A DNA stretch of 10,109 nucleotides from an uncultured Deinococcales bacterium (GTDB taxonomy: Bacteria; Deinococcota; Deinococci; Deinococcales; JAAFIG01): positions 1 to 10,109 of the forward strand of contig CAXTTL010000180.1 of the NCBI GenBank assembly GCA_964247135.1. Direction: 5' to 3'. This document shows positions 121 to 10,109 of this stretch, one piece after another. The position numbers were made by a program, and so were the translations under genes. Position 1 is the first letter of the stretch, and each line of letters starts with the position of its first letter. The notes below the pieces were generated by a model that was not told where the DNA came from, did not search any database, and worked only from the letters and a program-made list of their open reading frames with translations.

Positions 121-299
121 GCGTTGTGGGTTGGATTGCTCGGGTTGCGTTACAGACACGAAAAAAACGAGTTCTCGGGTGAAACAATTCAAGTCTGAAC
201 TCGAGTTCACAACAAAATTCTTCGAGATTGAACGCCAAAATCAGATTTCAGTCACAGAGAAGCCACAACCCAAGCCGCGCCAGACGGTATTCTCGAGCG

Positions 300-1811
300 A
301 TGCGATTTCGATTTTCATTGATTCTGATTCTGGTGCTGTTGAGTTTTAATCAAGCTCGAGCACAATTTCAAGCCCAAGAAGGTTGGGGCAAACCGCGTTT
401 GGTGACGACTTTAACGGCAACGGGTGGTTTGATTCTGGATGCGACGAACAACACTGTTATTGCACTCGAGGAAACGGGTTTAAGCCAAGTCAACCTGCAA
501 ACGGGCGCAAAAACCAAGCTGCTCGAGAAACGCGGTTTAAAAGATTTGCGCGGCATCAACAGCAATTTTGGCATCATGGGCGTTTGGGGCGCACGCAACC
601 TCTCGAGTGATGATGCGCTGGAAGTGGGATGGTTACAAAATGGCAAACTCGAGGTCGAACAGGCATCCATAAACGGCATTCCCAGCGCGAAAACCGTGCT
701 GGCAGACAAAACGGGTCCGATTGCGGTTTGGGCTGAATCTTTGGCTGAAGATACGGTGTTGTACCTGAAAAACTGGCGGGAAAAAGCACAAATTGTTTAC
801 CGCACCAAACTTTCTATTGGGGCGCTTGCCGCCGTGCGAGACTCGAGTGGCAAGTATTTTTTCTTGTTTGCTGAAGGTTATCGCAATGCGCAAGATGAAA
901 AATTTGACGCGATTTTATTGCGCGGGAATTTGGCGAAACTCGAGCGGCAAGAATTAGGCGCGGCGGTATATACGCGTGGTCAAGAGTATTTGTTGACGCC
1001 AGATGGAACGCCGATTTGGTGGTGGGAAACCAGAGAAGACCAACGCAAAGCCGCACTCACTCAAGTGCACAACGCGATTTTGGCGTACTGGGATGGCACA
1101 AAAGCCGTACCCTTTGGCGTAGCGAATCCAACCATCACCTCGAGCAAGGACGCGCTGTACTGGTCTGAAAAAAACAGCATTTTTAGTGCCAACCTTCTAA
1201 AACTCGAGCAAGCCAAACAACTCTTGCTGGCGCCAAACAGCATCAGCTTTGCGCAATATGGGCAAAGCAAAAACAAGCAAGTCATGGTCTGGCAAAGCGT
1301 GGCTCAAGACGGATTTGCCAGCGAACTGTACGCCGCAGACACGCTCGAGCCTTATCAACCAAACTTGATTGACCGCATTGCCGTATCGCTTGGTTGGAAT
1401 CCCTGGTATGCGGGTACAAGCGCCCTTGGGCAAACTGCCGCCAGCCTGTTGGTCGGCGCATTTGGCGTGCTCATCATTACGCCCATTGCCTTTTTGCTCG
1501 GCTCGAGTTTCGGTGGCGCAGGATTCAAAGGGTTCAGGTTTGGTTTAATGCTCGCCTGGGGCTTTGGCATTCTGGCTCGAGTGCTCGGCGGTCTGGCAGC
1601 CAAAAACGCTGGAACGTTCGCCTTTACCGCATTGCTCGAGCCGAGTTGGTGGGTGGTGTTGCTGGGCTTGGGATTGGGAACGTTGCTGGCAGTGCTCAAC
1701 CGCAAACGGTTCATGCAACTCGAGTTGAACACGATCATCACGGCGGGTTTGGTGACGCTGGTTGCCAGTGCGGTCAGTGCATTCTCGAGGTTGGGATTTG
1801 TGCAGTTTTGA
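300..1811 (+). CDS. Hypothetical secreted/membrane-anchored protein (signal peptide, large beta-rich extracytoplasmic domain, about 4 C-terminal TM helices), 503 aa
   Basis: Long ORF 228-1811. ATG at 300 gives a signal-peptide-like N-terminus MRFRFSLILILVLLSFNQARA|Q and has TATTCT 6 bp upstream. Hydrophobic C-terminal segments include LLVGAFGVLIITPIAFLLG and WWVVLLGLGLGTLLAVL. Family not recognised. Confidence 0.8.
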   Translation: MRFRFSLILILVLLSFNQARAQFQAQEGWGKPRLVTTLTATGGLILDATNNTVIALEETGLSQVNLQTGAKTKLLEKRGLKDLRGINSNFGIMGVWGARNLSSDDALEVGWLQNGKLEVEQASINGIPSAKTVLADKTGPIAVWAESLAEDTVLYLKNWREKAQIVYRTKLSIGALAAVRDSSGKYFFLFAEGYRNAQDEKFDAILLRGNLAKLERQELGAAVYTRGQEYLLTPDGTPIWWWETREDQRKAALTQVHNAILAYWDGTKAVPFGVANPTITSSKDALYWSEKNSIFSANLLKLEQAKQLLLAPNSISFAQYGQSKNKQVMVWQSVAQDGFASELYAADTLEPYQPNLIDRIAVSLGWNPWYAGTSALGQTAASLLVGAFGVLIITPIAFLLGSSFGGAGFKGFRFGLMLAWGFGILARVLGGLAAKNAGTFAFTALLEPSWWVVLLGLGLGTLLAVLNRKRFMQLELNTIITAGLVTLVASAVSAFSRLGFVQF

Positions 1812-1825
1812 GGTGGGAATGCTCT

Positions 1826-1872
1826 CCACCCTCATCCCCGACCCTTCTCCCGCGAGCGGGAGAAGGGAGTTT
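1826..1872 (+). repeat. BoxC/REP-like intergenic palindromic repeat, copy 1 (pyrimidine-rich tail plus 12-bp GC-rich hairpin)
   Basis: ccaccctcatccccga-cccttctcccgc-ga-gcgggagaaggg-agttt, with a perfect stem at 1842-1853/1856-1867. An inverted second copy is at 9685-9770. It lies just after the stop of the upstream gene, so it may also act as a terminator or mRNA stabiliser. Confidence 0.75.
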
Positions 1873-1990
1873 AAGTTCTATTTTGAGAGATTGGGATATC
1901 GTTTCTCGAAAAATCCTAAACTACGTCGGGCGCTAGCACTTAAACATGGGGATCACTGCAAAATTATTCGTTCCAGACACAAAATCAGCA

Positions 1991-2101
1991 ATTACCCGTC
2001 TATGACATCCTCGAGTACCCGGCAGGCGGCATGACCGAAACTGAAATTCTCGAGGATATTCCGAGCTTGACCAGGATGATTTGCGAGCGACGCTGTTATT
2101 C
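1991..2101 (+). pseudogene. DUF433-family (putative antitoxin) remnant, N-terminally truncated and frameshifted
   Basis: Reads IT(+1)VYDILEYPAGGMTETEILEDIPSLT(-1)DDLRATLLF, matching the DUF433 pattern RITVYDILEYLAxGMTxxEILxDFPxLTxxDIRAxL. The N-terminal GxPxIRG motif and a start codon are missing. Confidence 0.7.
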
Positions 2102-2839
2102 TGAACGTGCAATCAAACTGCAAACGTGCTTCACAGTCTTCAAATGTTCAGGCAGTAATTTCGTTTGGTGCAATACGAAACTTCTCGAGTAAAGTCCCAA
2201 TGTTGCTTTGGCTCGAGTGGTGACACTTTCACCATCAAATCCAAGGGCAGTCCAGAAGTATTTCTTCCAAATTGCGTCCGTTTCGGCATCGCGCACAGCA
2301 CTCCAAAATCGATTTTCAGAATTGCTCAACACGCCATTGGCAAGAGCACCAACATCGGTTAAGGCGTTCAGCAAAGCAACAGTGGCATGTAACGCTTTCT
2401 CGAGATTGTTGTTGCTTAATCCACCTAAAATTTTTTGAACGATTTCGGCATTTTCAGCCAGTACCCAACTGATCGCAAGATCGGCATCCTTTTGCACTGT
2501 TTTCCATGAGAAGGTTTTGGCGCGTTCTTGCAAATTGGCATACCAACCATCTGGGTCAAACAGGATTTGGGCTTCCCTTGTGGCTGCAATATTGGGCATG
2601 GCTTTCCAAGGGTCATAGAGCATCGATTCACGGTTTTCTCTGTCTACAAAATAGACGTTTACCAAGCGATCTTCAAGGTAGTACATTTGAGCCGGTGGAC
2701 GTTTGCCTCGAACAACCACAAGAATATCCAAGTCGCTGTACGCATCCAACTCGTCTCGAGCGCCGCTGCCAATCAATACGACACTGAGGGTATTGCTGTC
2801 TTGCTCAATCAGATTTGTAATGGTTTGAAGAAGCTGCAT
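2096..2839 (-). CDS. Nucleotidyltransferase domain protein (Pol-beta superfamily; KNTase-like architecture with helical C-terminus)
   Basis: 247 aa with motif VVLIGSGARDELDAYSDLDILVV (GS-x-R...SDxD). TACACT lies 6 bp upstream of the ATG. Confidence 0.85.
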   Translation of the reverse strand: MQLLQTITNLIEQDSNTLSVVLIGSGARDELDAYSDLDILVVVRGKRPPAQMYYLEDRLVNVYFVDRENRESMLYDPWKAMPNIAATREAQILFDPDGWYANLQERAKTFSWKTVQKDADLAISWVLAENAEIVQKILGGLSNNNLEKALHATVALLNALTDVGALANGVLSNSENRFWSAVRDAETDAIWKKYFWTALGFDGESVTTRAKATLGLYSRSFVLHQTKLLPEHLKTVKHVCSLIARSE

Positions 2840-2923
2840 TTATAAAGTGTAATCGGTATTTTCAGTTCGCGTATAAGCGGTCTGGCGTATTCAATTAAAA
2901 TTTACGCGTGCTATTTTCTGCTC

Positions 2924-4624
2924 ATGAATTCCGCTCAGTTGGCTTCTCGAGTTGAACAACTGATTCAGCCACACATTGAGGCTCGAGGTATTCTGGGATT
3001 GTCCCTGGCGGTCATTCAGGGAAACGAAGTTGTTTATGCTGGCGGGTTTGGAAAAACCAGCACTGAGGAAAGTGGCGTTTTGGTCACACCGAACACACTT
3101 TTTGCCTTGGGTTCGGTGTGCAAAACACTGTGCGCCGTCCTGGTGATGCGATTGGTTGAAGAAGGCAAGATTGATTTGGACAGACCGGTGATCGAATACA
3201 TTCCAGAACTCAAATTCAGCAACAAGGATTTGGGCAAAAAGGTGACAACACGACATTTGCTCAGTCACACTTCGGGTCTGCCCGCATTTGGGAAAACATG
3301 GGGGTCACGTGACCCAGATGCGCTGAAGCGATTTGTCCTCGAGCAAGTTCCTTACTACACTTTTTTTGCAAAACCAGGCGCAATTTACCTCTATGCCAGT
3401 TCCGCTTTTTGCATCGCTGGATATGTTGCCGAAGTGATTACTGGGCGTTACTACGATGATTTGGTTCGTGAATATGTGCTTGATCCATTGAGCATGACCA
3501 GCACCTCTTTTGATCCCACTGAAATCCTGACCTATTCGGTTGCTTTGCCTCACGACAAAATGGATGATGGCAGTTTAAAAGTTTCCCATCAAATCCCCTA
3601 CAACGTTTGTGGCAATCCATCAGGATTTGCGTATGGAAGCGTTCTGGATTTGACCCAACTTGCAAAGATGTTTCTCAATCAGGGCAAACTTTCAGACGAA
3701 TCCCTGTTGAAGCCATCGTCTCTTGCTTCAATGACAGCAGATCATGGCAGCCTCGATTTTTTAATGTCAACACGTCCTCTAAAAAATTGTTTCCAGAAAT
3801 CTGGTTTGGGGATATTCACCGGAAATTATCGAAGCCGACCCTTTTGGGGACACGATGGGCGAATGCCAGAGTACGTGACTCTTTTGCATTTGTTTCCCGA
3901 GGACAACACTGCGCTCGTGTTGATGACGAACAATTGTGATGAAAAAGCCTTGTACCAAATTGTGCCTCAAATTTACAACGTTCTTTTGGACCTTCCTGAA
4001 AAACCTGAAGCGAACGAAACCATCACTCCTCCAGCCGTCATAGGTGATGTTGAACATCCAGAACGTTACGTGGGTCGATACCTTTCGGGAGGCGTTTTCT
4101 CGAGGGTTTCGCTGGTCAAAAATCAATTGATGTTGGAACTCGAGGACACTGTTTTGCCCCTCTTCCCGATTGGTGAACATCATTTCTATGCTTATTTTCC
4201 CCAAAAGCCACATTTTTCGGTTCGGTTCTTGCAGGCTTTCGACACACGAATTTCGCACGTCATGATCGCGGGCAATCTGTACGAACGTATGGATATGGAT
4301 GAAAGCTTCCAGCCCGATTTCACAAAACTGAAAACATACGAAGGGATTTACAAAGACCCCAGCAACACAAGATTCGATCAACTGCTGCGGGTCGAACTGA
4401 AAGATGAAAAGATCATTGTTTCAGAGTCTGGATTTGAGATGCCGTGTACCGCACTGAGCGATACGCTGTTTTTGTGTCCATACGGGCTGATCGAGTTTCG
4501 ACACACGAAATCAAATGTTCCCATTTTGGTGTGGGGTAAGGCAACGCCGTATTTTGCCATAAACGAAATAGCATGGGCGCAAAACAAGGTCGTTCAGTAC
4601 ATTGCCCAACCGTATACGGATTAA
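2924..4624 (+). CDS. Serine hydrolase, beta-lactamase/AmpC (PBP-like) family, with C-terminal extension
   Basis: 566 aa with SxxK (FALGSVCK), LLSHTSG, a YxN-position variant (YASS) and HxG (WGHDG). No signal peptide. TATTTT lies 6 bp upstream of the ATG. Confidence 0.9.
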   Translation: MNSAQLASRVEQLIQPHIEARGILGLSLAVIQGNEVVYAGGFGKTSTEESGVLVTPNTLFALGSVCKTLCAVLVMRLVEEGKIDLDRPVIEYIPELKFSNKDLGKKVTTRHLLSHTSGLPAFGKTWGSRDPDALKRFVLEQVPYYTFFAKPGAIYLYASSAFCIAGYVAEVITGRYYDDLVREYVLDPLSMTSTSFDPTEILTYSVALPHDKMDDGSLKVSHQIPYNVCGNPSGFAYGSVLDLTQLAKMFLNQGKLSDESLLKPSSLASMTADHGSLDFLMSTRPLKNCFQKSGLGIFTGNYRSRPFWGHDGRMPEYVTLLHLFPEDNTALVLMTNNCDEKALYQIVPQIYNVLLDLPEKPEANETITPPAVIGDVEHPERYVGRYLSGGVFSRVSLVKNQLMLELEDTVLPLFPIGEHHFYAYFPQKPHFSVRFLQAFDTRISHVMIAGNLYERMDMDESFQPDFTKLKTYEGIYKDPSNTRFDQLLRVELKDEKIIVSESGFEMPCTALSDTLFLCPYGLIEFRHTKSNVPILVWGKATPYFAINEIAWAQNKVVQYIAQPYTD

Positions 4625-4645
4625 AATTTAGAACAGGCAAACGTA

Positions 4646-4677
4646 CTCGAGCCTCGGTCAATCTCCAAAGGCTCGAG
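4646..4677. terminator. Possible stem-loop downstream of the serine hydrolase, built from two CTCGAG sites
   Basis: CTCGAGCCT (4646-4654) and AGGCTCGAG (4669-4677) form a 9-bp inverted repeat with a 14-nt loop. There is no U-tract, so the terminator role is uncertain. Confidence 0.25.
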
Positions 4678-4738
4678 CCATCAACAACGGGTGTGTCTGT
4701 CTCGAGGGGCTGGAACATCGCTTCTCGAGATTCGGCTA

Positions 4739-5032
4739 GAGGCTGGTAAGCACTCGATCTAACTTTCTACAAGAATTACGTTTAAAGACTAAAGCATCGT
4801 CATACACGACTTTTTTGACTCACGCTTTTTGGGTATATTTGGAGTTTGACAGGTCATCTCATACCCCGAAACCAGATTTACGAAAATAGGCGAAGTATGA
4901 AACAACAACCAAACGAGTCGAACGTATATCAAAATAGCTGTGTAGAACGGGAAATTTTAGATATAAAGATTCCAGTATTTCGGTGAAAACAGAAAACCAC
5001 ATCTCAATTTATAAGAGCTTCAAACCAGCCTC
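4739..5032. mobile_element. Putative MITE / non-autonomous IS remnant (~294 bp) with GAGGCTGGT termini and TA duplication
   Basis: Left end TA|GAGGCTGGT (4737-4747) and right end ACCAGCCTC|TA (5024-5034) are perfect inverted repeats. The interior is AT-rich, has no CTCGAG and has no recognisable ORF. Confidence 0.45.
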
Positions 5033-6081
5033 TAAGTCAACTCGAGGTAACGATCAGATTGCTCGAGATCAGCGTCCAGGGCAGCAATGGGGTTAACATC
5101 TTCAATTGAATTTCCTTGTTGAACTGTGACTGATTTTCCTTCACGTTTCAGTGCAAAAAATTGTGCTGGAACATTTGGATGCAAAGACAATTGAATTTGC
5201 AATTCCCGCAGCAAAAACAAACTGTGCGTCGCAAGAACAATCTGAATGCCCATGCTCGAGAGAATCACCAGCGTTTCGGCAAGGTGACGAATCATTTTGG
5301 GGTTTAAGTTGGTTTCTGGCTCGTCCCAAAAAAGTGTTGTGCCTTTTTGCAAACTGCCGTTCATCAGTAAATACGCGAGCATGGCAATTTTACGAATACC
5401 TTCTGCAACAAGCGGCATCTCGAGTTTCTGATTGGCATTAGAAATGTAAAACCGTCCATTTTCAACAATTATTTTGCCTTCCATTTGTTTCTCGAGCGTT
5501 TCGAGTAAGGGTTTTACTTTTTCGGCGGCTTCACCTTTCAATGGCGTAAGCGCCAAAGCATCAGCAAGATCAAGATAAGTGCTGTCAAACTCGAGTTCTC
5601 GATTGCGGAGTACTGCGGCAAAACCAGAATAAATTGAAAGGATTTCCTTAGTAGGAATAGTTAATGGACGAATAATAATGGAGTTTGTAGTAAATTTTCG
5701 CAAAAATACAAGTTTTGACTGGAATTCAATATCAAAACCAATGTCGATTGAATCAAACCCAAAGTCACTTGGTTTCTCAAAATTTCGTTTAAAAAAGTTC
5801 CTAATTTCGCAATTCGAATTTCTGGCACGATTTGAAATTAAATCACCAAGTTTTTCCACATGAAACACGGATAGCAATTGACGAGTTATTCTTTCTTGCT
5901 CACTTCCAACCAAACCCGATAATCCAGATTCAAAACTTATTTGCATCATGGAATAACCAAGTTTTAGCAAATGACTTTTCCCAGTCCCATTCTCACCAAT
6001 CACCACATTCAACCCAGGGCTAAACTCGAGCTTGGCTTCTTCAAACACGGTAAAATTTTTGATCTCGAGCGCTCGTAACAT
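5032..6081 (-). CDS. AAA_21/AAA_15-type ABC-like ATPase (defence/TA-associated class)
   Basis: 349 aa with N-terminal LEIKNF...LNVVIGENGTGKS (Walker A), signature-like AEGIRK, Walker B/D-loop LFWDEPETNLNP and H-loop LATHS. No TM segments. TAAACT lies 6 bp upstream of the ATG. Confidence 0.9.
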   Translation of the reverse strand: MLRALEIKNFTVFEEAKLEFSPGLNVVIGENGTGKSHLLKLGYSMMQISFESGLSGLVGSEQERITRQLLSVFHVEKLGDLISNRARNSNCEIRNFFKRNFEKPSDFGFDSIDIGFDIEFQSKLVFLRKFTTNSIIIRPLTIPTKEILSIYSGFAAVLRNRELEFDSTYLDLADALALTPLKGEAAEKVKPLLETLEKQMEGKIIVENGRFYISNANQKLEMPLVAEGIRKIAMLAYLLMNGSLQKGTTLFWDEPETNLNPKMIRHLAETLVILSSMGIQIVLATHSLFLLRELQIQLSLHPNVPAQFFALKREGKSVTVQQGNSIEDVNPIAALDADLEQSDRYLELT

Positions 6082-6144
6082 GCGCTCAGTTTACCTCAAT
6101 CGTGCGTCAATCGAAATCTCGAGAAATACCCGTACAATCACTTT

Positions 6145-6489
6145 GTGAATCCTGAAGCTCGAGTCATTGTTGCGTCCGAAGTCAACCTTAAAATCAGGTC
6201 GCTCGAGGATGTGTCTGATGCCATTGGCGCGGTTTATGGTGCAGACGGTTTGTTGCTGAGCGAAGCCGAACTTTCACCAGAATTTTTTGATCTGCGTTCT
6301 GGGATTGCTGGTGAACTTTTTCAGAAATTCACCAATTATCAAATTCACCTTGCAGTTGTGGTCAAGAGTCTCGAGGTTTATGGCGAACGTTTTGGCGAAC
6401 TGGCATTTGAACATAAAAATCACAAATTGATTCGCTTTTTTGATGATGTCGAAGCTGCAAAATCGTGGCTGATTAGCCAAGGAACCTAA
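6145..6489 (+). CDS. DUF4180 domain protein
   Basis: 114 aa, GTG start with TACAAT 6 bp upstream. Characteristic EFFDLRSGIAGELFQKFTNY and RFFDDVEAAKSWL. The stop overlaps the convergent tilS-tadA stop. Confidence 0.85.
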   Translation: MNPEARVIVASEVNLKIRSLEDVSDAIGAVYGADGLLLSEAELSPEFFDLRSGIAGELFQKFTNYQIHLAVVVKSLEVYGERFGELAFEHKNHKLIRFFDDVEAAKSWLISQGT

Positions 6490-8126
6490 ACTTTTTTGGA
6501 AGCTCGAGTTTGGGCAAAAAACCTTGAGAGTAACGCACTGGATTGTTTCTCGAGCACGCCAGTTCTGACCTCAATTTGGTGCGACCAATCGGCTCGAGTG
6601 GCGTCCATGACACCACCCAATGCGCCGTTCTTGCTCGAGTTTGCACCGAACACCACACGTTTTACCCTGGCTTCCAAAATTGCTCCCAAACACATCAGGC
6701 ACGGCTCGAGCGTGACAACCAAAGTGCATTCGGTTAAATACGGCGTCTCGAGTTTCAGGGTTGCATCTCTTATGGCTTCGAGTTCGGCATGACGCGTCAT
6801 ATCGGAATGTTCAAAGCTGCGGTTGCGTCCGACGCCAACGACCTCTCCCCTATGCAAGATGACCGCACCGACAGGAACTTCGCCCACTTCAAGGGCTTCA
6901 TCCGCCAAATCGAGCGCGTGTTTCATCGCGTCAATTTCCACATCTCGAGTCACGCCAATTCGCACGTCAAGAATTGGTGGCTCGAGTCCAACGAAAAGCA
7001 CTTCAGAACCTTGCGCGACTAAAGGAATGCTGTCTCGAATTTCTCGAGGAGTTTTTTGGTCAATCAAAACATCGGATAGTTTGCGAGTTCCTCCAGACAA
7101 TTGAATTCGATCTCCTGCCACTCGAGTTCTTTGAATGGCATTTGGGAAGCTCGAGAAATCGAGGTTTTGAATATCAATGTCGGGTTGGAATTGTTGAAGT
7201 TCTGTTTTGAAAATCTCGAGTTTCCCGTTTTGAATCACACCAACATAATCTTGAGGCAATGAAACTCGAGTCACGGCGGGATTCTCAAGTTTGCCGCGAA
7301 TTTCTTCTAAATGCGCGAAATCCACGTTCAATCCCGCACCCTCGAGCTGGCGTCGAATCTGGCGACGTTGCAAGACTTTTGGCTCGAGCGAAAGATCAGC
7401 CCAACTTGGAATTCTTGCCGTCAGTTCCTCAAGAAACGCGTCTTCTTCTCGAGCCAGCGTTCCGAACCTGGCGAGTGATTCAGCGGCTTTGGGATAACGC
7501 TCGAGGAGTTTGGGCATGATCTCGAGCCTGACCCAATTCCGGGTGTAGGTCGTGTCGGTGTTGCTCGAGTCTTCGCGCCAGGTTAAGCCAAGTTCAAGCA
7601 TAAATTGCTCGAGTTGAACTTTTGAAATCTCGAGCATCGGGCGCAAAATCGAACCGCGTCTTGCTGGTATTCCTGTGGCTCGAGCCGTACCGCGCAAGAG
7701 TTGCATCAAAACGGTTTCGGCGTTGTCCTCGAGATGATGTGCGGTCAGAATGGCGTTCGAGTTTGTTTTTTTGGCAACTCGAGTTAGAAATTCGTAACGG
7801 ATTTTTCTTGCGCCTTCCTCGAGACTCCAACCGCGCTTGGCAGCAATTTCGAGGATATTCACGCGTTCAGAAAAAAACTTTATCTCGAGTTTTGAGCATG
7901 TATCCCGCACAAAATCAGCATCCAAACTCGAGTCTTCTCGAATGCCGTGATCCAAATGCGCAACTGAAAAAGGCAATCCAGTCTCGAGCATCAAATACAG
8001 CAACGCGATTGAATCACGCCCGCCAGAAACCGCCAGCAGCACAGCCTCGAGTGCAATTTTTGGCTTTTGATTTGCCAAATCCTCGAGCTTGGTTTTGATT
8101 TGATCGACAAGCTTCACGCCTTGCAT
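6486..8126 (-). CDS. tilS: tRNA(Ile)-lysidine synthetase TilS fused to a C-terminal tRNA adenosine(34) deaminase (TadA-like) domain
   Basis: PP-loop AVSGGRDS, HLDHGIR, TAHHLEDNAETVLMQLLRGT, EDSSN..YTRNWVR and TilS C-terminal GDRIQLSGGTRKLSDVLID. The deaminase domain has GEVPVGAV, HAE and TLEPCLMC. The real start may be GTG at 8117 (TATCAT 7 bp upstream). Confidence 0.95.
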   Translation of the reverse strand: MQGVKLVDQIKTKLEDLANQKPKIALEAVLLAVSGGRDSIALLYLMLETGLPFSVAHLDHGIREDSSLDADFVRDTCSKLEIKFFSERVNILEIAAKRGWSLEEGARKIRYEFLTRVAKKTNSNAILTAHHLEDNAETVLMQLLRGTARATGIPARRGSILRPMLEISKVQLEQFMLELGLTWREDSSNTDTTYTRNWVRLEIMPKLLERYPKAAESLARFGTLAREEDAFLEELTARIPSWADLSLEPKVLQRRQIRRQLEGAGLNVDFAHLEEIRGKLENPAVTRVSLPQDYVGVIQNGKLEIFKTELQQFQPDIDIQNLDFSSFPNAIQRTRVAGDRIQLSGGTRKLSDVLIDQKTPREIRDSIPLVAQGSEVLFVGLEPPILDVRIGVTRDVEIDAMKHALDLADEALEVGEVPVGAVILHRGEVVGVGRNRSFEHSDMTRHAELEAIRDATLKLETPYLTECTLVVTLEPCLMCLGAILEARVKRVVFGANSSKNGALGGVMDATRADWSHQIEVRTGVLEKQSSALLSRFFAQTRASKKV

Positions 8127-8170
8127 GATACGGTTTGTTCAAAGCCAATTTCATCCCAACAGGAGAACCC

Positions 8171-9637
8171 ATGTCCTATATTCTTGCCCTAGACCAAGGC
8201 ACAACCTCGAGCCGTGCGATTGTTTTTGGTTTGACCGGACGTCCCGTCGCCAGCGCCCAACGCGAATTCAAGCAGTTTTACCCGCAACCTGGTTGGGTCG
8301 AACACGATCCGCTCGAGATTCTCGAGTCGCAAATCACGGTGGCGCGGCAGGCGCTCGAGAAATCGCCTGGAGAGGTGCAAGGCATTGGCATCACCAACCA
8401 GCGTGAAACGGTGGTGCTTTGGGAGCGCTCGAGCGGCAAACCAGTCCACAACGCGATTGTCTGGCAGGACAGGCGCACGGCTGGTTTTTGTGACGAATTG
8501 AAAGCCAGAGGTCTCGAGAAAACCTTGATCGAAAAAACGGGGCTGCTGGTCGATCCGTACTTTTCAGGCACAAAACTGGCGTGGTTGCTCGAGAATGTGC
8601 CTGGGCTTCGCAAACGAGCCGAGGCGGGAGAATTGGCGTTCGGTACAGTGGATTCATGGTTGATCTGGAATTTGACTGGCGGCAAAGTTCATGCGACCGA
8701 TGTCACAAACGCCGCCAGAACCTTGATGCTGAACCTTCATACGCTCGAATGGGACAGCGAAATCCTCGAGATTCTGAATGTGCCACGTGCCGTGCTGCCC
8801 GAAGTCCGAGCCTCGAGCGGAAGTTTTGGCGACGCTGAGATGCTGGGCGGTTTGCCGATTTTGGGCGTGGCGGGAGATCAACACGCGGCGTTGTTCGGGC
8901 AAGCATGTCTCGAGCCTGGAATGGCAAAAAATACCTACGGCACGGGTTGCTTCATGCTCATGAACACAGGCGAGAAATTGATTCCAAGCCAGAATAAACT
9001 CCTCACCACCCCAGCTTGGAAACTCGAGAAACCCACCTTCGCGCTCGAGGGCAGCGTGTTTATTGCTGGCGCGATAGTCCAATGGTTGCGCGATGAAATG
9101 CAGTTTTTCAGTTCCGCCGCCGAAGTCGAACTGCTCGCCTCGAGCGTGAACGACAACGCGGGCGTCTACATCGTGCCGGCTTTTGCAGGTTTGGGTGCGC
9201 CGCACTGGGACCCGTATGCTCGAGGGACGATTCTGGGCTTGACCCGAGGTTCGGGCAAAGCCCACATCGCTCGGGCGGCGCTCGAGTCGATTGCCTATCA
9301 AACCCGTGATTTGCTCGAGGCGATGCAAAAAGATTCTGGCATTCAACTCAAAGAATTGCGGGTTGACGGCGGCGCAACGCAGAATAATTTATTGATGCAG
9401 TTTCAAGCCGACATTCTGAATGTTCCCGTCGTGCGTCCCGCCGTCACCGAAACCACGGCTTTGGGCGCGGCGTACTTGGCTGGTCTGGCGCTCGGCGTGT
9501 TTACGCTCGAGGGCATCCGTCAGAATTGGGCGCTCGAGCGCCGCTTTGAACCCAGCATGAACCCAGTTGAACGTGAAAAGTTGATTCATGGTTGGGATCG
9601 GGCTGTGGGTCGGGCTAAAGGTTGGCTCGAGGCATGA
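8171..9637 (+). CDS. glpK: Glycerol kinase
   Basis: [64 protein letters not shown] and LRVDGGA. Shine-Dalgarno AGGAG at 8161-8165 precedes ATG 8171. 488 aa. Confidence 0.97.
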
Positions 9638-9684
9638 AATGGAGCCATCAGAAAAACAATTTGCCACTTCTCAAGAACTCAATA

Positions 9685-9770
9685 AAACTCCCTTCTCCCG
9701 CGAGCGGGAGAAGGCGACCCCGCCCGCCAGGTGCGCGTTTGGGGTCAAGAGAGGTCGGGGATGAGCGTGG
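9685..9770 (-). repeat. BoxC/REP-like repeat, copy 2 (inverted relative to copy 1) with a 39-bp internal insertion
   Basis: aaactcccttctcccgcgagcgggagaag-[9714-9752]-ggtcggggatgagcgtgg is the reverse complement of 1826-1872 except for the 2-nt loop, one substitution and the insert. Confidence 0.75.
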
Positions 9771-9842
9771 CAGAAGTCATCGCTATGGTTCCAAGCCAAT
9801 GCAACTGTCCACACGTTGCGTCCAAGTTTCGGACTCCCTCGA

Positions 9843-10109
9843 GTGACCTATTCTCGAGACATCAAAACCTTGTTCCTCACCCGTGGCGTGCGAACCTTCG
9901 CTTACGGTTCGCTGGCGGTCATCATCGCGCTGTTTTTGGCGGCTCGAGGTTTTAACGACAAAGGCATCGGTTTGTTGTTCACCCTGACTTTGGTTGGCGA
10001 TGCGGTCTTAAGTTTAGGTGTCTCGAGTGTCGCGGATCGGGTTGGACGCAAGCGCTTGTTGGTGCTCAGTTGCGCCTTGGTGGTCATGGCGGGGCTTGTA
10101 TTCGCCTTG
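9843..10109 (+). CDS. MFS transporter, N-terminal part (runs off the window)
   Basis: From GTG 9843: MTYSRDIKTLFLTRGVRTFAYGSLAVIIALFLAARGFNDKGIGLLFTLTLVGDAVLSLGVSSVADRVGRKRLLVLSCALVVMAGLVFAL. It has TM helices and MFS motif A (ADRVGRKR). It is absent from the ORF track because there is no stop codon. The start is uncertain (TTG 9816 is also in frame). Confidence 0.85.
   Translation, partial: MTYSRDIKTLFLTRGVRTFAYGSLAVIIALFLAARGFNDKGIGLLFTLTLVGDAVLSLGVSSVADRVGRKRLLVLSCALVVMAGLVFAL

Follow-up and report, generated by a model that had tools for sequence, protein, structure and literature searches.

An old, uncultured Deinococcales family with CTCGAG as its highly iterated palindrome

To our knowledge, HIP1, the classic highly iterated palindrome (HIP) of cyanobacteria, has gone without an explanation for three decades and is known from a single phylum. 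In this report, we are describing CTCGAG as a true HIP of an old, uncultured family of Deinococcales, starting from a stretch of 10,109 bp (“the window”; positions 1–10,109 of contig CAXTTL010000180.1, C180 of the source genome G000), for which an original prediction, made from the sequence alone, had proposed a genome-wide HIP1-like palindrome outside cyanobacteria. In the available text of Elhai 2015 (PMC4390886) and of PMC5861425, HIP1 (GCGATCGC) and the alternate cyanobacterial HIPs (GGCGCC, GCsGC, rCCGGy) are short, G+C-containing palindromes that are 15- to 300-fold over-represented and constitute the commonest words of their length. They are located in genes as well as in spacers, are conserved past neutral expectation, and belong to whole clades, although some lineages show them at intermediate levels or have lost them. 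CTCGAG resembles them in each of these respects, and it does not occur in the available text of either paper. The explanation currently proposed for HIP1 is a bias that acts when DNA of kin is taken up or recombined. A literature search outside supplements and subscription journals yielded no publication on an iterated palindrome of the CTCGAG type, nor any on a comparable word of Deinococcota.

CTCGAG is a different word in a different phylum, a hexamer rather than an octamer, and is also denser, with 6,660 sites per Mb as compared with 300–2,700 per Mb for HIP1 (Table 2 of PMC4390886, in its available form). The same text states that cyanobacteria generally possess a cognate methyltransferase, whereas no conserved methyltransferase has been found together with CTCGAG. 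Furthermore, deviations from CTCGAG are without the outer-position bias of HIP1, and its enrichment is coupled with a purge of nearly all other palindromes of 6 bp. A second, independent and denser case in another lineage, apparently lacking a conserved cognate methyltransferase, offers a comparative test, given that an explanation of HIPs must hold in both.

Three further systems invite comparison. DNA uptake sequences (DUS in Neisseria, USS in Pasteurellaceae) are non-palindromic words of 9–12 nt that occur about once per kb. CTCGAG is comparable to them as a genome-wide over-represented word that lies in coding DNA and shapes proteins and, possibly, in a transmission bias that marks kin DNA; however, it is also enriched in phages, which is not predicted by an uptake bias, and a receptor for its uptake is neither known nor has one been found here. 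As a recognition word, CTCGAG belongs to the XhoI/PaeR7I restriction-modification systems, and a system of the XhoI family is present in the related genome G021. Restriction sites are normally avoided, as is CTCGAG in a Deinococcus-like genus of the phylum (g7), but here the word is enriched 25-fold. Finally, very-short-patch repair is a repair bias which shifts oligonucleotide frequencies genome-wide. Dcm/Vsr of Escherichia coli skews the frequencies of words related to CCWGG in this way, with an effect that is modest rather than 25-fold; the Vsr endonuclease has not been found in the family investigated here, and the depletion of T:G-derived neighbours that such repair predicts is not seen.

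Abundance and DNA-level origin of CTCGAG in the source genome

The window contains exactly 97 copies of CTCGAG, the first at position 200 and the last at 10022–10027, which is the number originally counted by hand. In 200 dinucleotide-preserving shuffles of the window, the mean was 2.0 (standard deviation 1.4, largest value 8), and none reached 97; thus, the large excess that had been predicted is real, though the figure of about 40-fold was slightly low, the excess over these shuffles being about 48-fold. Eight gene-like open reading frames (ORFs), none of them with an internal stop, hold 89 of the sites at 3–30 per ORF, as compared with 11.7 in synonymous-codon shuffles of the same ORFs. The other eight sites are located outside ORFs at 200, 2010, 2049, 4646, 4672, 4701, 4724 and 6118. 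CTCGAG is, as predicted, found in every gene and in intergenic DNA without breaking an ORF, and a responsible gene is indeed not recognisable among those of the window.

G000 is an assembly of 5.09 Mb in 386 contigs with a completeness of 84%. It contains 33,925 copies of CTCGAG (6.66/kb, about one per 150 bases), which makes this word the commonest hexamer of the genome, with more than twice the count of the next one. The possibility that the enrichment is limited to a single contig can be dismissed, since all 356 contigs longer than 3 kb hold 2.6–11.3 sites/kb. Under Markov models of orders 0–3, the observed-to-expected ratio (O/E) of CTCGAG is 24.8, 35.2, 14.4 and 3.45, respectively, and the word ranks first each time; the genome-wide palindrome of the original prediction is thereby confirmed. 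At order 4, the ratio falls to 1.24, because 88% of all CTCGA words sit inside CTCGAG, which makes this figure circular. In practical terms, XhoI would cut this DNA to pieces of about 150 bp, and k-mer based binning and taxonomic tools are affected.

A by-product of codon or dicodon usage, of amino-acid or base composition, or else an assembly or library artefact would be the simplest account of such an excess, and two observations might be quoted in its favour, namely the low order-4 ratio just mentioned and the fact that 61% of the coding sites are in the Leu-Glu frame. With the longest ORFs simply taken as genes (4,211 in all), however, the density is higher in non-coding DNA (7.44/kb) than in coding DNA (6.52/kb). 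All three frames are used, with 17,038 coding sites read as CTC|GAG and 4,400 and 6,444 in the other two. When synonymous codons are shuffled within genes, keeping proteins and codon usage, about 3,950 sites are obtained versus 27,882 observed (O/E 7.1), and when the order of codons is shuffled, about 1,600 (O/E 17.4). Outside the motif, CTC accounts for only 15% of the Leu codons and GAG for 33% of the Glu codons; hence, the CTC-GAG pair is not a translational preference. Moreover, comparable densities are found at a GC content of 43.9–59.9% (samples of 77–400 kb from family genomes) and in 18 other assemblies of the family, and the proteins are intact and homologous to known ones. With these controls, the explanation by codon usage, composition or artefact is already refuted, and we regard the chance that it holds as practically nil.

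The extent to which CTCGAG occupies the positions open to it is considerable. Leu-Glu dipeptides are written as CTCGAG in 17,038 of 22,207 cases (76.7%), and in the other two frames, compatible tripeptides are realised as CTCGAG in 4,400 of 10,144 (43%) and 6,444 of 13,885 cases (46%), so that the word fills 43–77% of the positions permitted by the protein sequence. Leu-Glu is the most over-used dipeptide of the proteome (2.40), the reverse dipeptide Glu-Leu being used at 1.02. A force that shifts the use of one dipeptide 2.4-fold throughout a proteome matters for gene prediction and codon models as well as for the way proteins evolve.

The glycerol kinase encoded in the window illustrates what this means for a single protein. 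Its gene carries 19 sites and encodes 15 Leu-Glu dipeptides, while 40 distant homologues contain 0.55 sites and 3.3 Leu-Glu on average. In a codon-mapped protein alignment of 52 sequences, Leu-Glu stands in place of the usual residues at window positions 8312, 8321, 8354, 8909, 9023, 9506, 9533 and 9626; one Leu-Glu is found where Trp-Ser occurs in 20 of the 40 homologues. Among 80 loci of glycerol kinase homologues, in a collection free of close relatives, none is rich in CTCGAG; the best matches there have an identity of 57–65% and come from many phyla. CTCGAG has, thus, forced many amino-acid replacements. The force behind it is able to change proteins but has left the 16S rRNA gene untouched: the 16S rRNA genes of three family genomes contain no CTCGAG, while their 3-kb flanks hold 13–14 in the two genomes counted (in G000 itself, no 16S rRNA gene is assembled). 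The DNA-level process that had been postulated is borne out by the higher density in non-coding DNA, the use of three frames, the altered residues and a conservation of sites of 78% versus 46% for all hexamers (see below); it is in the DNA itself, whether coding or not, that CTCGAG is created and maintained.

Age, conservation and spread of the trait, and phages sharing it

All 18 other genomes of the family, which belong to five genera, hold 4.3–6.8 CTCGAG/kb. Since the genera are only 90–91% identical in their 16S rRNA genes, the trait is old; it has persisted since before the divergence of the family's genera, in every family genome searched. For a measure of conservation, G000 was compared with five genomes of the same genus over 230 kb of alignment at about 85% DNA identity. 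CTCGAG is conserved at 1,358 of 1,751 aligned sites (77.6%), which makes it the most conserved hexamer, in comparison with 45.6% for all hexamers, 39.7% for words differing from it in one position and 47.9% for words of the same composition. In relation to other hexamers, its loss is slowed two- to threefold. A HIP1-like pattern of deviations, with core and outer positions behaving differently, was looked for in these same-genus alignments and is not seen.

A survey of 201 genomes of Deinococcota (sizes rounded) places the family in a graded series. In the largest genus (g7, 83 genomes), CTCGAG is avoided, with 0.01–0.27 sites/kb; this genus is termed Deinococcus-like here, and the glycerol kinase GlpK of one of its genomes is closest, at 76.7%, to a record named Deinococcus sp., which is one basis for the lineage label. 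In a genus judged Thermus-like from its size (g9, 30 small genomes), CTCGAG is about as frequent as the control word GAGCTC. Three genera in the family of the latter reach 1.4–3.5/kb, one genus of the Deinococcus-like family reaches 3.6/kb, and the two remaining families of the phylum are at 0.3–2.9/kb; a weaker enrichment (1.4–3.6/kb) is, therefore, present in other genera of the phylum. A trait that is graded over some 200 genomes, from avoidance to 6.8/kb, and that includes closed, probably cultured genomes at 2–3.5/kb, makes both gene-content correlation and bench tests feasible; for HIP1, a phylogenetic comparison by PGLS or BayesTraits has been made in PMC13756078.

A pattern scan of IMG/VR for three CTCGAG in close succession revealed three phage genomes with 2.6–4.5 CTCGAG/kb (Table 1). 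In all of them, CTCGAG is located in all frames and in non-coding DNA, 51–96% of the Leu-Glu dipeptides are written as CTCGAG, and many other palindromes are missing. Phage G217 encodes its own DNA polymerase, helicase and UvsX-like recombinase. As to the hosts, there is no nucleotide match to G000 beyond a weak one of 137 bp, and a 20-kb piece compared with 251 genomes of the phylum produced only short, weak matches in 8. Methyltransferases of the types found in G000 were not detected in the three phages, apart from one weak match of 69 aa.

Along the chromosome of G000, the spacing of sites is close to geometric, favouring multiples of three (15,577 versus 8,988 and 8,974), and counts per 500 bp are near-Poisson (variance/mean 0.91), in line with the lack of fixed spacing reported originally. 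Density is flat across gene starts and ends (5.3–8.7/kb) except for the 25 bp that follow stop codons, where it rises to 11.9/kb. Only 30 of 4,883 windows of 1 kb are empty. The 47 site-free stretches of at least 1.2 kb (72.5 kb in total) have a GC content of 42.6%, whereas the genome as a whole is at 52.7%; DNA acquired not long ago would be expected to show such a difference. The flanks of CTCGAG carry little information, as had been noted, but they are not entirely without bias, contrary to the original wording: A is preferred at −3 (0.40 versus a background of 0.255) and G at −1 (0.35), with the complements at +3 and +1. While the symmetry of this bias is automatic for a palindrome, its presence in non-coding DNA is informative; the bias is the same whether sites are coding (25,954) or lie wholly in non-coding DNA (3,621). 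A longer true motif has been rejected, as the best 8-mer, GCTCGAGC, covers only 4,225 of 33,894 sites.

These data bear on the possibility that each site is useful in itself, being bound by a chromosome-organising, replication or protective protein, such as a nucleoid protein or one reading a palindromic Chi-like anti-nuclease signal, and kept by weak selection in a very large population. The strong conservation (77.6% versus 45.6%) and the very even coverage of the genome are what such a use would lead one to expect, the equal flank bias in coding and non-coding DNA would fit the footprint of a protein, and the phages with their own replication genes carry CTCGAG as if it benefited any DNA in these cells. 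For HIP1, selection and a nucleoid role have been argued for, and a quasi-periodic distribution at 10–90 kb has been described, by Xu et al. 2018 (PMC5861425, in the part available). Against it stand a distribution that is near-Poisson instead of regular, the 1.5-kb 16S rRNA genes and the 47 long stretches that manage without sites, and the lack of a candidate protein among our findings; furthermore, the replacement of conserved enzyme residues would demand an implausibly large benefit from one of 34,000 redundant sites. On balance, we consider a use of each copy rather unlikely, yet deserving of serious attention.

Restriction, methylation and molecular drive

The enrichment of CTCGAG goes along with an extreme depletion of other palindromes. 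In the 5.09 Mb of G000, GAGCTC occurs 0 times, GGGCCC once, CGGCCG 3, AGGCCT 4, CGTACG 5 and GGATCC 7 times, where 1,100–1,700 copies are expected; CGATCG is found only 47 times, and the whole GRGCYC set is purged. Altogether, 28 of the 64 palindromic hexamers have an O/E below 0.1 and 36 of 64 below 0.2, and among the tetramers, GGCC is at 0.02 and CTAG at 0.07. From the window, 35 of the 64 palindromic hexamers are missing. The purged sets differ between the genera of the family, while the enrichment of CTCGAG is constant: CGGCCG occurs 0 times versus 74 expected in G005 and 185 versus 290 in G011, and CAGCTG 0 times versus 129 expected in G011 and 15 versus 14 in G009. As the purge follows restriction specificities and as its sets change between genera, it points to an intense, changing restriction pressure and, hence, to a frequent entry of DNA; in itself, it is ordinary, if extreme, restriction avoidance. 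A specific link between the enrichment of CTCGAG and the absence of GAGCTC has been rejected, because the GRGCYC set and about 30 other palindromes are purged as well, in sets varying by genus.

The original prediction had named an orphan methyltransferase with methyl-directed or very-short-patch repair as a possible source of the motif and had suggested a correlation with methyltransferases. At least ten genes of G000 are DNA methyltransferase-like, namely four of the beta class (N6/N4), two of the C5 type, two resembling MmeI, one fused to SNF2 and one resembling HsdM; a methyltransferase of the D12 class is present in addition. Close orthologues of each of them are present in only 2–6 of the 18 other family genomes, and none is family-wide, so that the ten enzymes have been rejected as drivers. 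In a comparison of six family genomes (the closed G011 of 5.09 Mb and five incomplete ones of 91–94% and 84%), searched for five Pfam methyltransferase classes with clustering of all ORFs at the loci, no methyltransferase orthogroup occurs in more than three; G011 lacks any beta-class enzyme (PF01555), and G008 lacks any C5 enzyme (PF00145). The specificity of methyltransferases is not readable from their sequences. Vsr (PF03852) was found in none of the 19 family genomes including G000, with one match in G029 of another family and a positive control search in E. coli, and endonucleases of the XhoI family (PF04555) were likewise found in none of the 19, with one match in G021 of another family.

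Two putative restriction-modification loci and one further gene deserve mention in this context. In the closed genome G021, an XhoI-family endonuclease of 312 aa is encoded convergently with a beta-class methyltransferase of 340 aa (G021:C1:74896-76793; L167:5897-7794). The D12-class adenine methyltransferase of G000 (277 aa), which had seemed conserved, overlaps an ORF of 364 aa of the SacI family (G000:C320:1061-2985, L193:320-2244, minus strand), and orthologues of the pair are found in 7 of the 19 family genomes including G000. Judged by these family assignments, the pair looks like a SacI-type restriction-modification system; it would explain the absence of GAGCTC from 5.09 Mb, not the abundance of CTCGAG, and was rejected as a driver. 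A beta-class methyltransferase gene of 258 aa (G000:C189:4856-5632) is free of CTCGAG over its 777 bp, although about 5 copies would be expected, and is probably a recent acquisition.

A broader form of the methylation model would assume that CTCGAG is methylated clade-wide by non-orthologous enzymes and that methyl-directed or very-short-patch-like repair converts near-matches. Elhai has proposed a model of this kind for HIP1, each cyanobacterial HIP is accompanied by a cognate methyltransferase according to the available text of PMC4390886, and C5 methylation of CTCGAG occurs in a Halorubrum strain, as stated in the accessible part of PMC8112702. Within the family, several DNA methyltransferases are present in every genome examined, and G021 combines its XhoI-family endonuclease and beta-class methyltransferase with 1.7 CTCGAG/kb, which means that the word is not avoided there. 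However, the model has to cope with the fact that Vsr was found in none of the 19 family genomes, with the patchy occurrence of methyltransferase orthogroups and classes, and with an identity of only about 26% between the beta-class enzymes of G000 and the XhoI-linked one. Summed over both directions, the differences from relatives comprise 92 TTCGAG, 74 CTTGAG and 73 CCCGAG; the deamination product CTTGAG/CTCAAG is, therefore, not in excess among them, nor is it depleted in G000 (1.1 times expectation), and the CpG of CTCGAG decays no faster than expected among same-genus genomes. We consider this broader model quite improbable. Nor is there support for an orphan methyltransferase of ancestral origin acting together with very-short-patch repair, as neither Vsr nor a family-wide methyltransferase, a depletion of near-matches or an excess of CpG decay was found in the genomes searched.

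The random spacing, the site-poor islands of low GC, the nearly saturated silent opportunities and the replaced conserved residues favour a molecular drive over a use of each copy. In our judgement, the chances are about even that CTCGAG owes its abundance to such a drive, i.e., to a putative DNA-processing factor of the host which would recognise CTCGAG, slightly more readily when A stands at −3 and G at −1, and would bias which DNA variants are passed on; the force would then not consist in a benefit of each single site. The factor might act in the uptake or recombination of kin DNA, in analogy to uptake sequences and to the proposal for HIP1. Alternatively, it might act within the cell, during gene conversion or short-patch repair, and the phage data would be better accommodated in this way. 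Either version, taken separately, is far less probable than the drive in general. The setting would be a lineage under extreme restriction pressure, from which nearly every other palindrome of 6 bp has been purged and in which CTCGAG may, for this reason, serve as the one word for “own DNA”. A drive of this kind would act on any DNA that is resident long enough, apparently including phage genomes, and would yield only to the strongest constraints, such as those on 16S rRNA.

Several observations weigh against a molecular drive. A candidate for the factor is lacking, as the family genomes searched yielded no Vsr, no XhoI-family endonuclease and no family-wide methyltransferase. Where relatives differ, they do so by ordinary transitions at each of the three half-site positions, and nothing in these betrays a particular repair reaction. 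Words that differ from CTCGAG in one position are not depleted in G000, TTCGAG and CCCGAG being at 1.6 times expectation, so that an efficient converter of near-matches is not evident. The genera g9 and g7, which we take to be Thermus and Deinococcus, close relatives known for natural competence, show no enrichment and avoidance, respectively; if this assignment is right, competence alone is not sufficient. The uptake version is unable to explain the enrichment in phages with their own replication genes, although the hosts of these phages are not established and the argument is weak either way. Finally, the divergence data are compatible with weak selection per site in a very large population as well.

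A more specific scenario would see in CTCGAG a positive “own DNA” word of the family and, more weakly, of much of the phylum. It would be read by a putative system other than a methyltransferase that favours or spares CTCGAG-rich DNA, a diverse restriction repertoire would have purged the other palindromes, and the phages would have copied both halves of the signature, being rich in CTCGAG and poor in other palindromes. In this detailed form, we consider the scenario speculative and unlikely. If true, it would mean that self and non-self are told apart by the density of a word, which would be a novel kind of discrimination, and, at the same time, that the HIP phenomenon has an independent second origin, which could show what HIPs are for.

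Features of the window and its surroundings

The features of the window and the three phage genomes are compiled in Table 1.

Table 1. CTCGAG in selected features of the window and in three phage genomes.
Feature	Position in the window, or record	Strand	CTCGAG sites and remarks
CTCGAG, 97 copies	200–10027		spread across the whole window, 9.6/kb; 2.0 expected
ORF, 527 aa, family unassigned (Pfam: no match)	228–1811	+	16 sites, all three frames; synonymous-shuffle mean 1.2, maximum 3
Beta-lactamase-family gene	2924–4624	+	sparsest in the window: 5 sites, 2.9/kb; longest site-free stretch 3343–4099
Intergenic cluster between convergent genes	4646–4729		4 sites; read directly from the sequence
AAA_21 ATPase gene	5032–6081	−	8 sites, 7 written as Leu-Glu
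TilS-deaminase fusion gene	6486–8126	−	densest in the window: 30 sites, 18.3/kb, 25 Leu-Glu; synonymous-shuffle mean 5.2, maximum 10
Glycerol kinase gene	8135–9637	+	19 sites, 15 Leu-Glu dipeptides
Phage G217 (L356/L320)	complete, 110 kb, CheckV 100%, terminal repeats		318 sites, 2.9/kb; GAGCTC 0
Phage G219 (L315)	72.9-kb record, 70% complete		186 sites; GAGCTC 0
Phage G221 (L333)	complete, 56.8 kb, CheckV 100%, terminal repeats		258 sites, 4.5/kb

Owing to the self-complementarity of CTCGAG, pairing in RNA is possible between any two copies that lie close together. In the intergenic cluster, the first two sites are extended to CTCGAGCC and GGCTCGAG, respectively, and form an 8-bp inverted repeat around 16 nt (4646–4683); the resulting hairpin falls just past the stop codon at 4624.

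The product of the TilS-deaminase fusion gene is composed of PP-loop and TilS_C domains, followed by a C-terminal cytidine/deoxycytidylate-type deaminase domain that resembles TadA or MafB19. Between the glycerol kinase gene and a gene for an MFS protein, positions 9657–9784 are occupied by a short repeat, of which many copies with an identity of 84–93% are scattered in five same-genus genomes; it is probably a REP-type element. Two other parts of the window have counterparts within G000 itself: the AT-rich spacer at 4734–5035 is 93% identical to G000:C10:10288-10589, and positions 1–209 are 78% identical to G000:C202:8659-8868. Among the sequencing runs listed, none of RNA is included, and only two freshwater metagenome runs contain small shares (0.07 and 0.05). 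They yield a few contigs of 151 nt, two of which are identical to the window and include sites, and these runs possibly represent the source sample or relatives.

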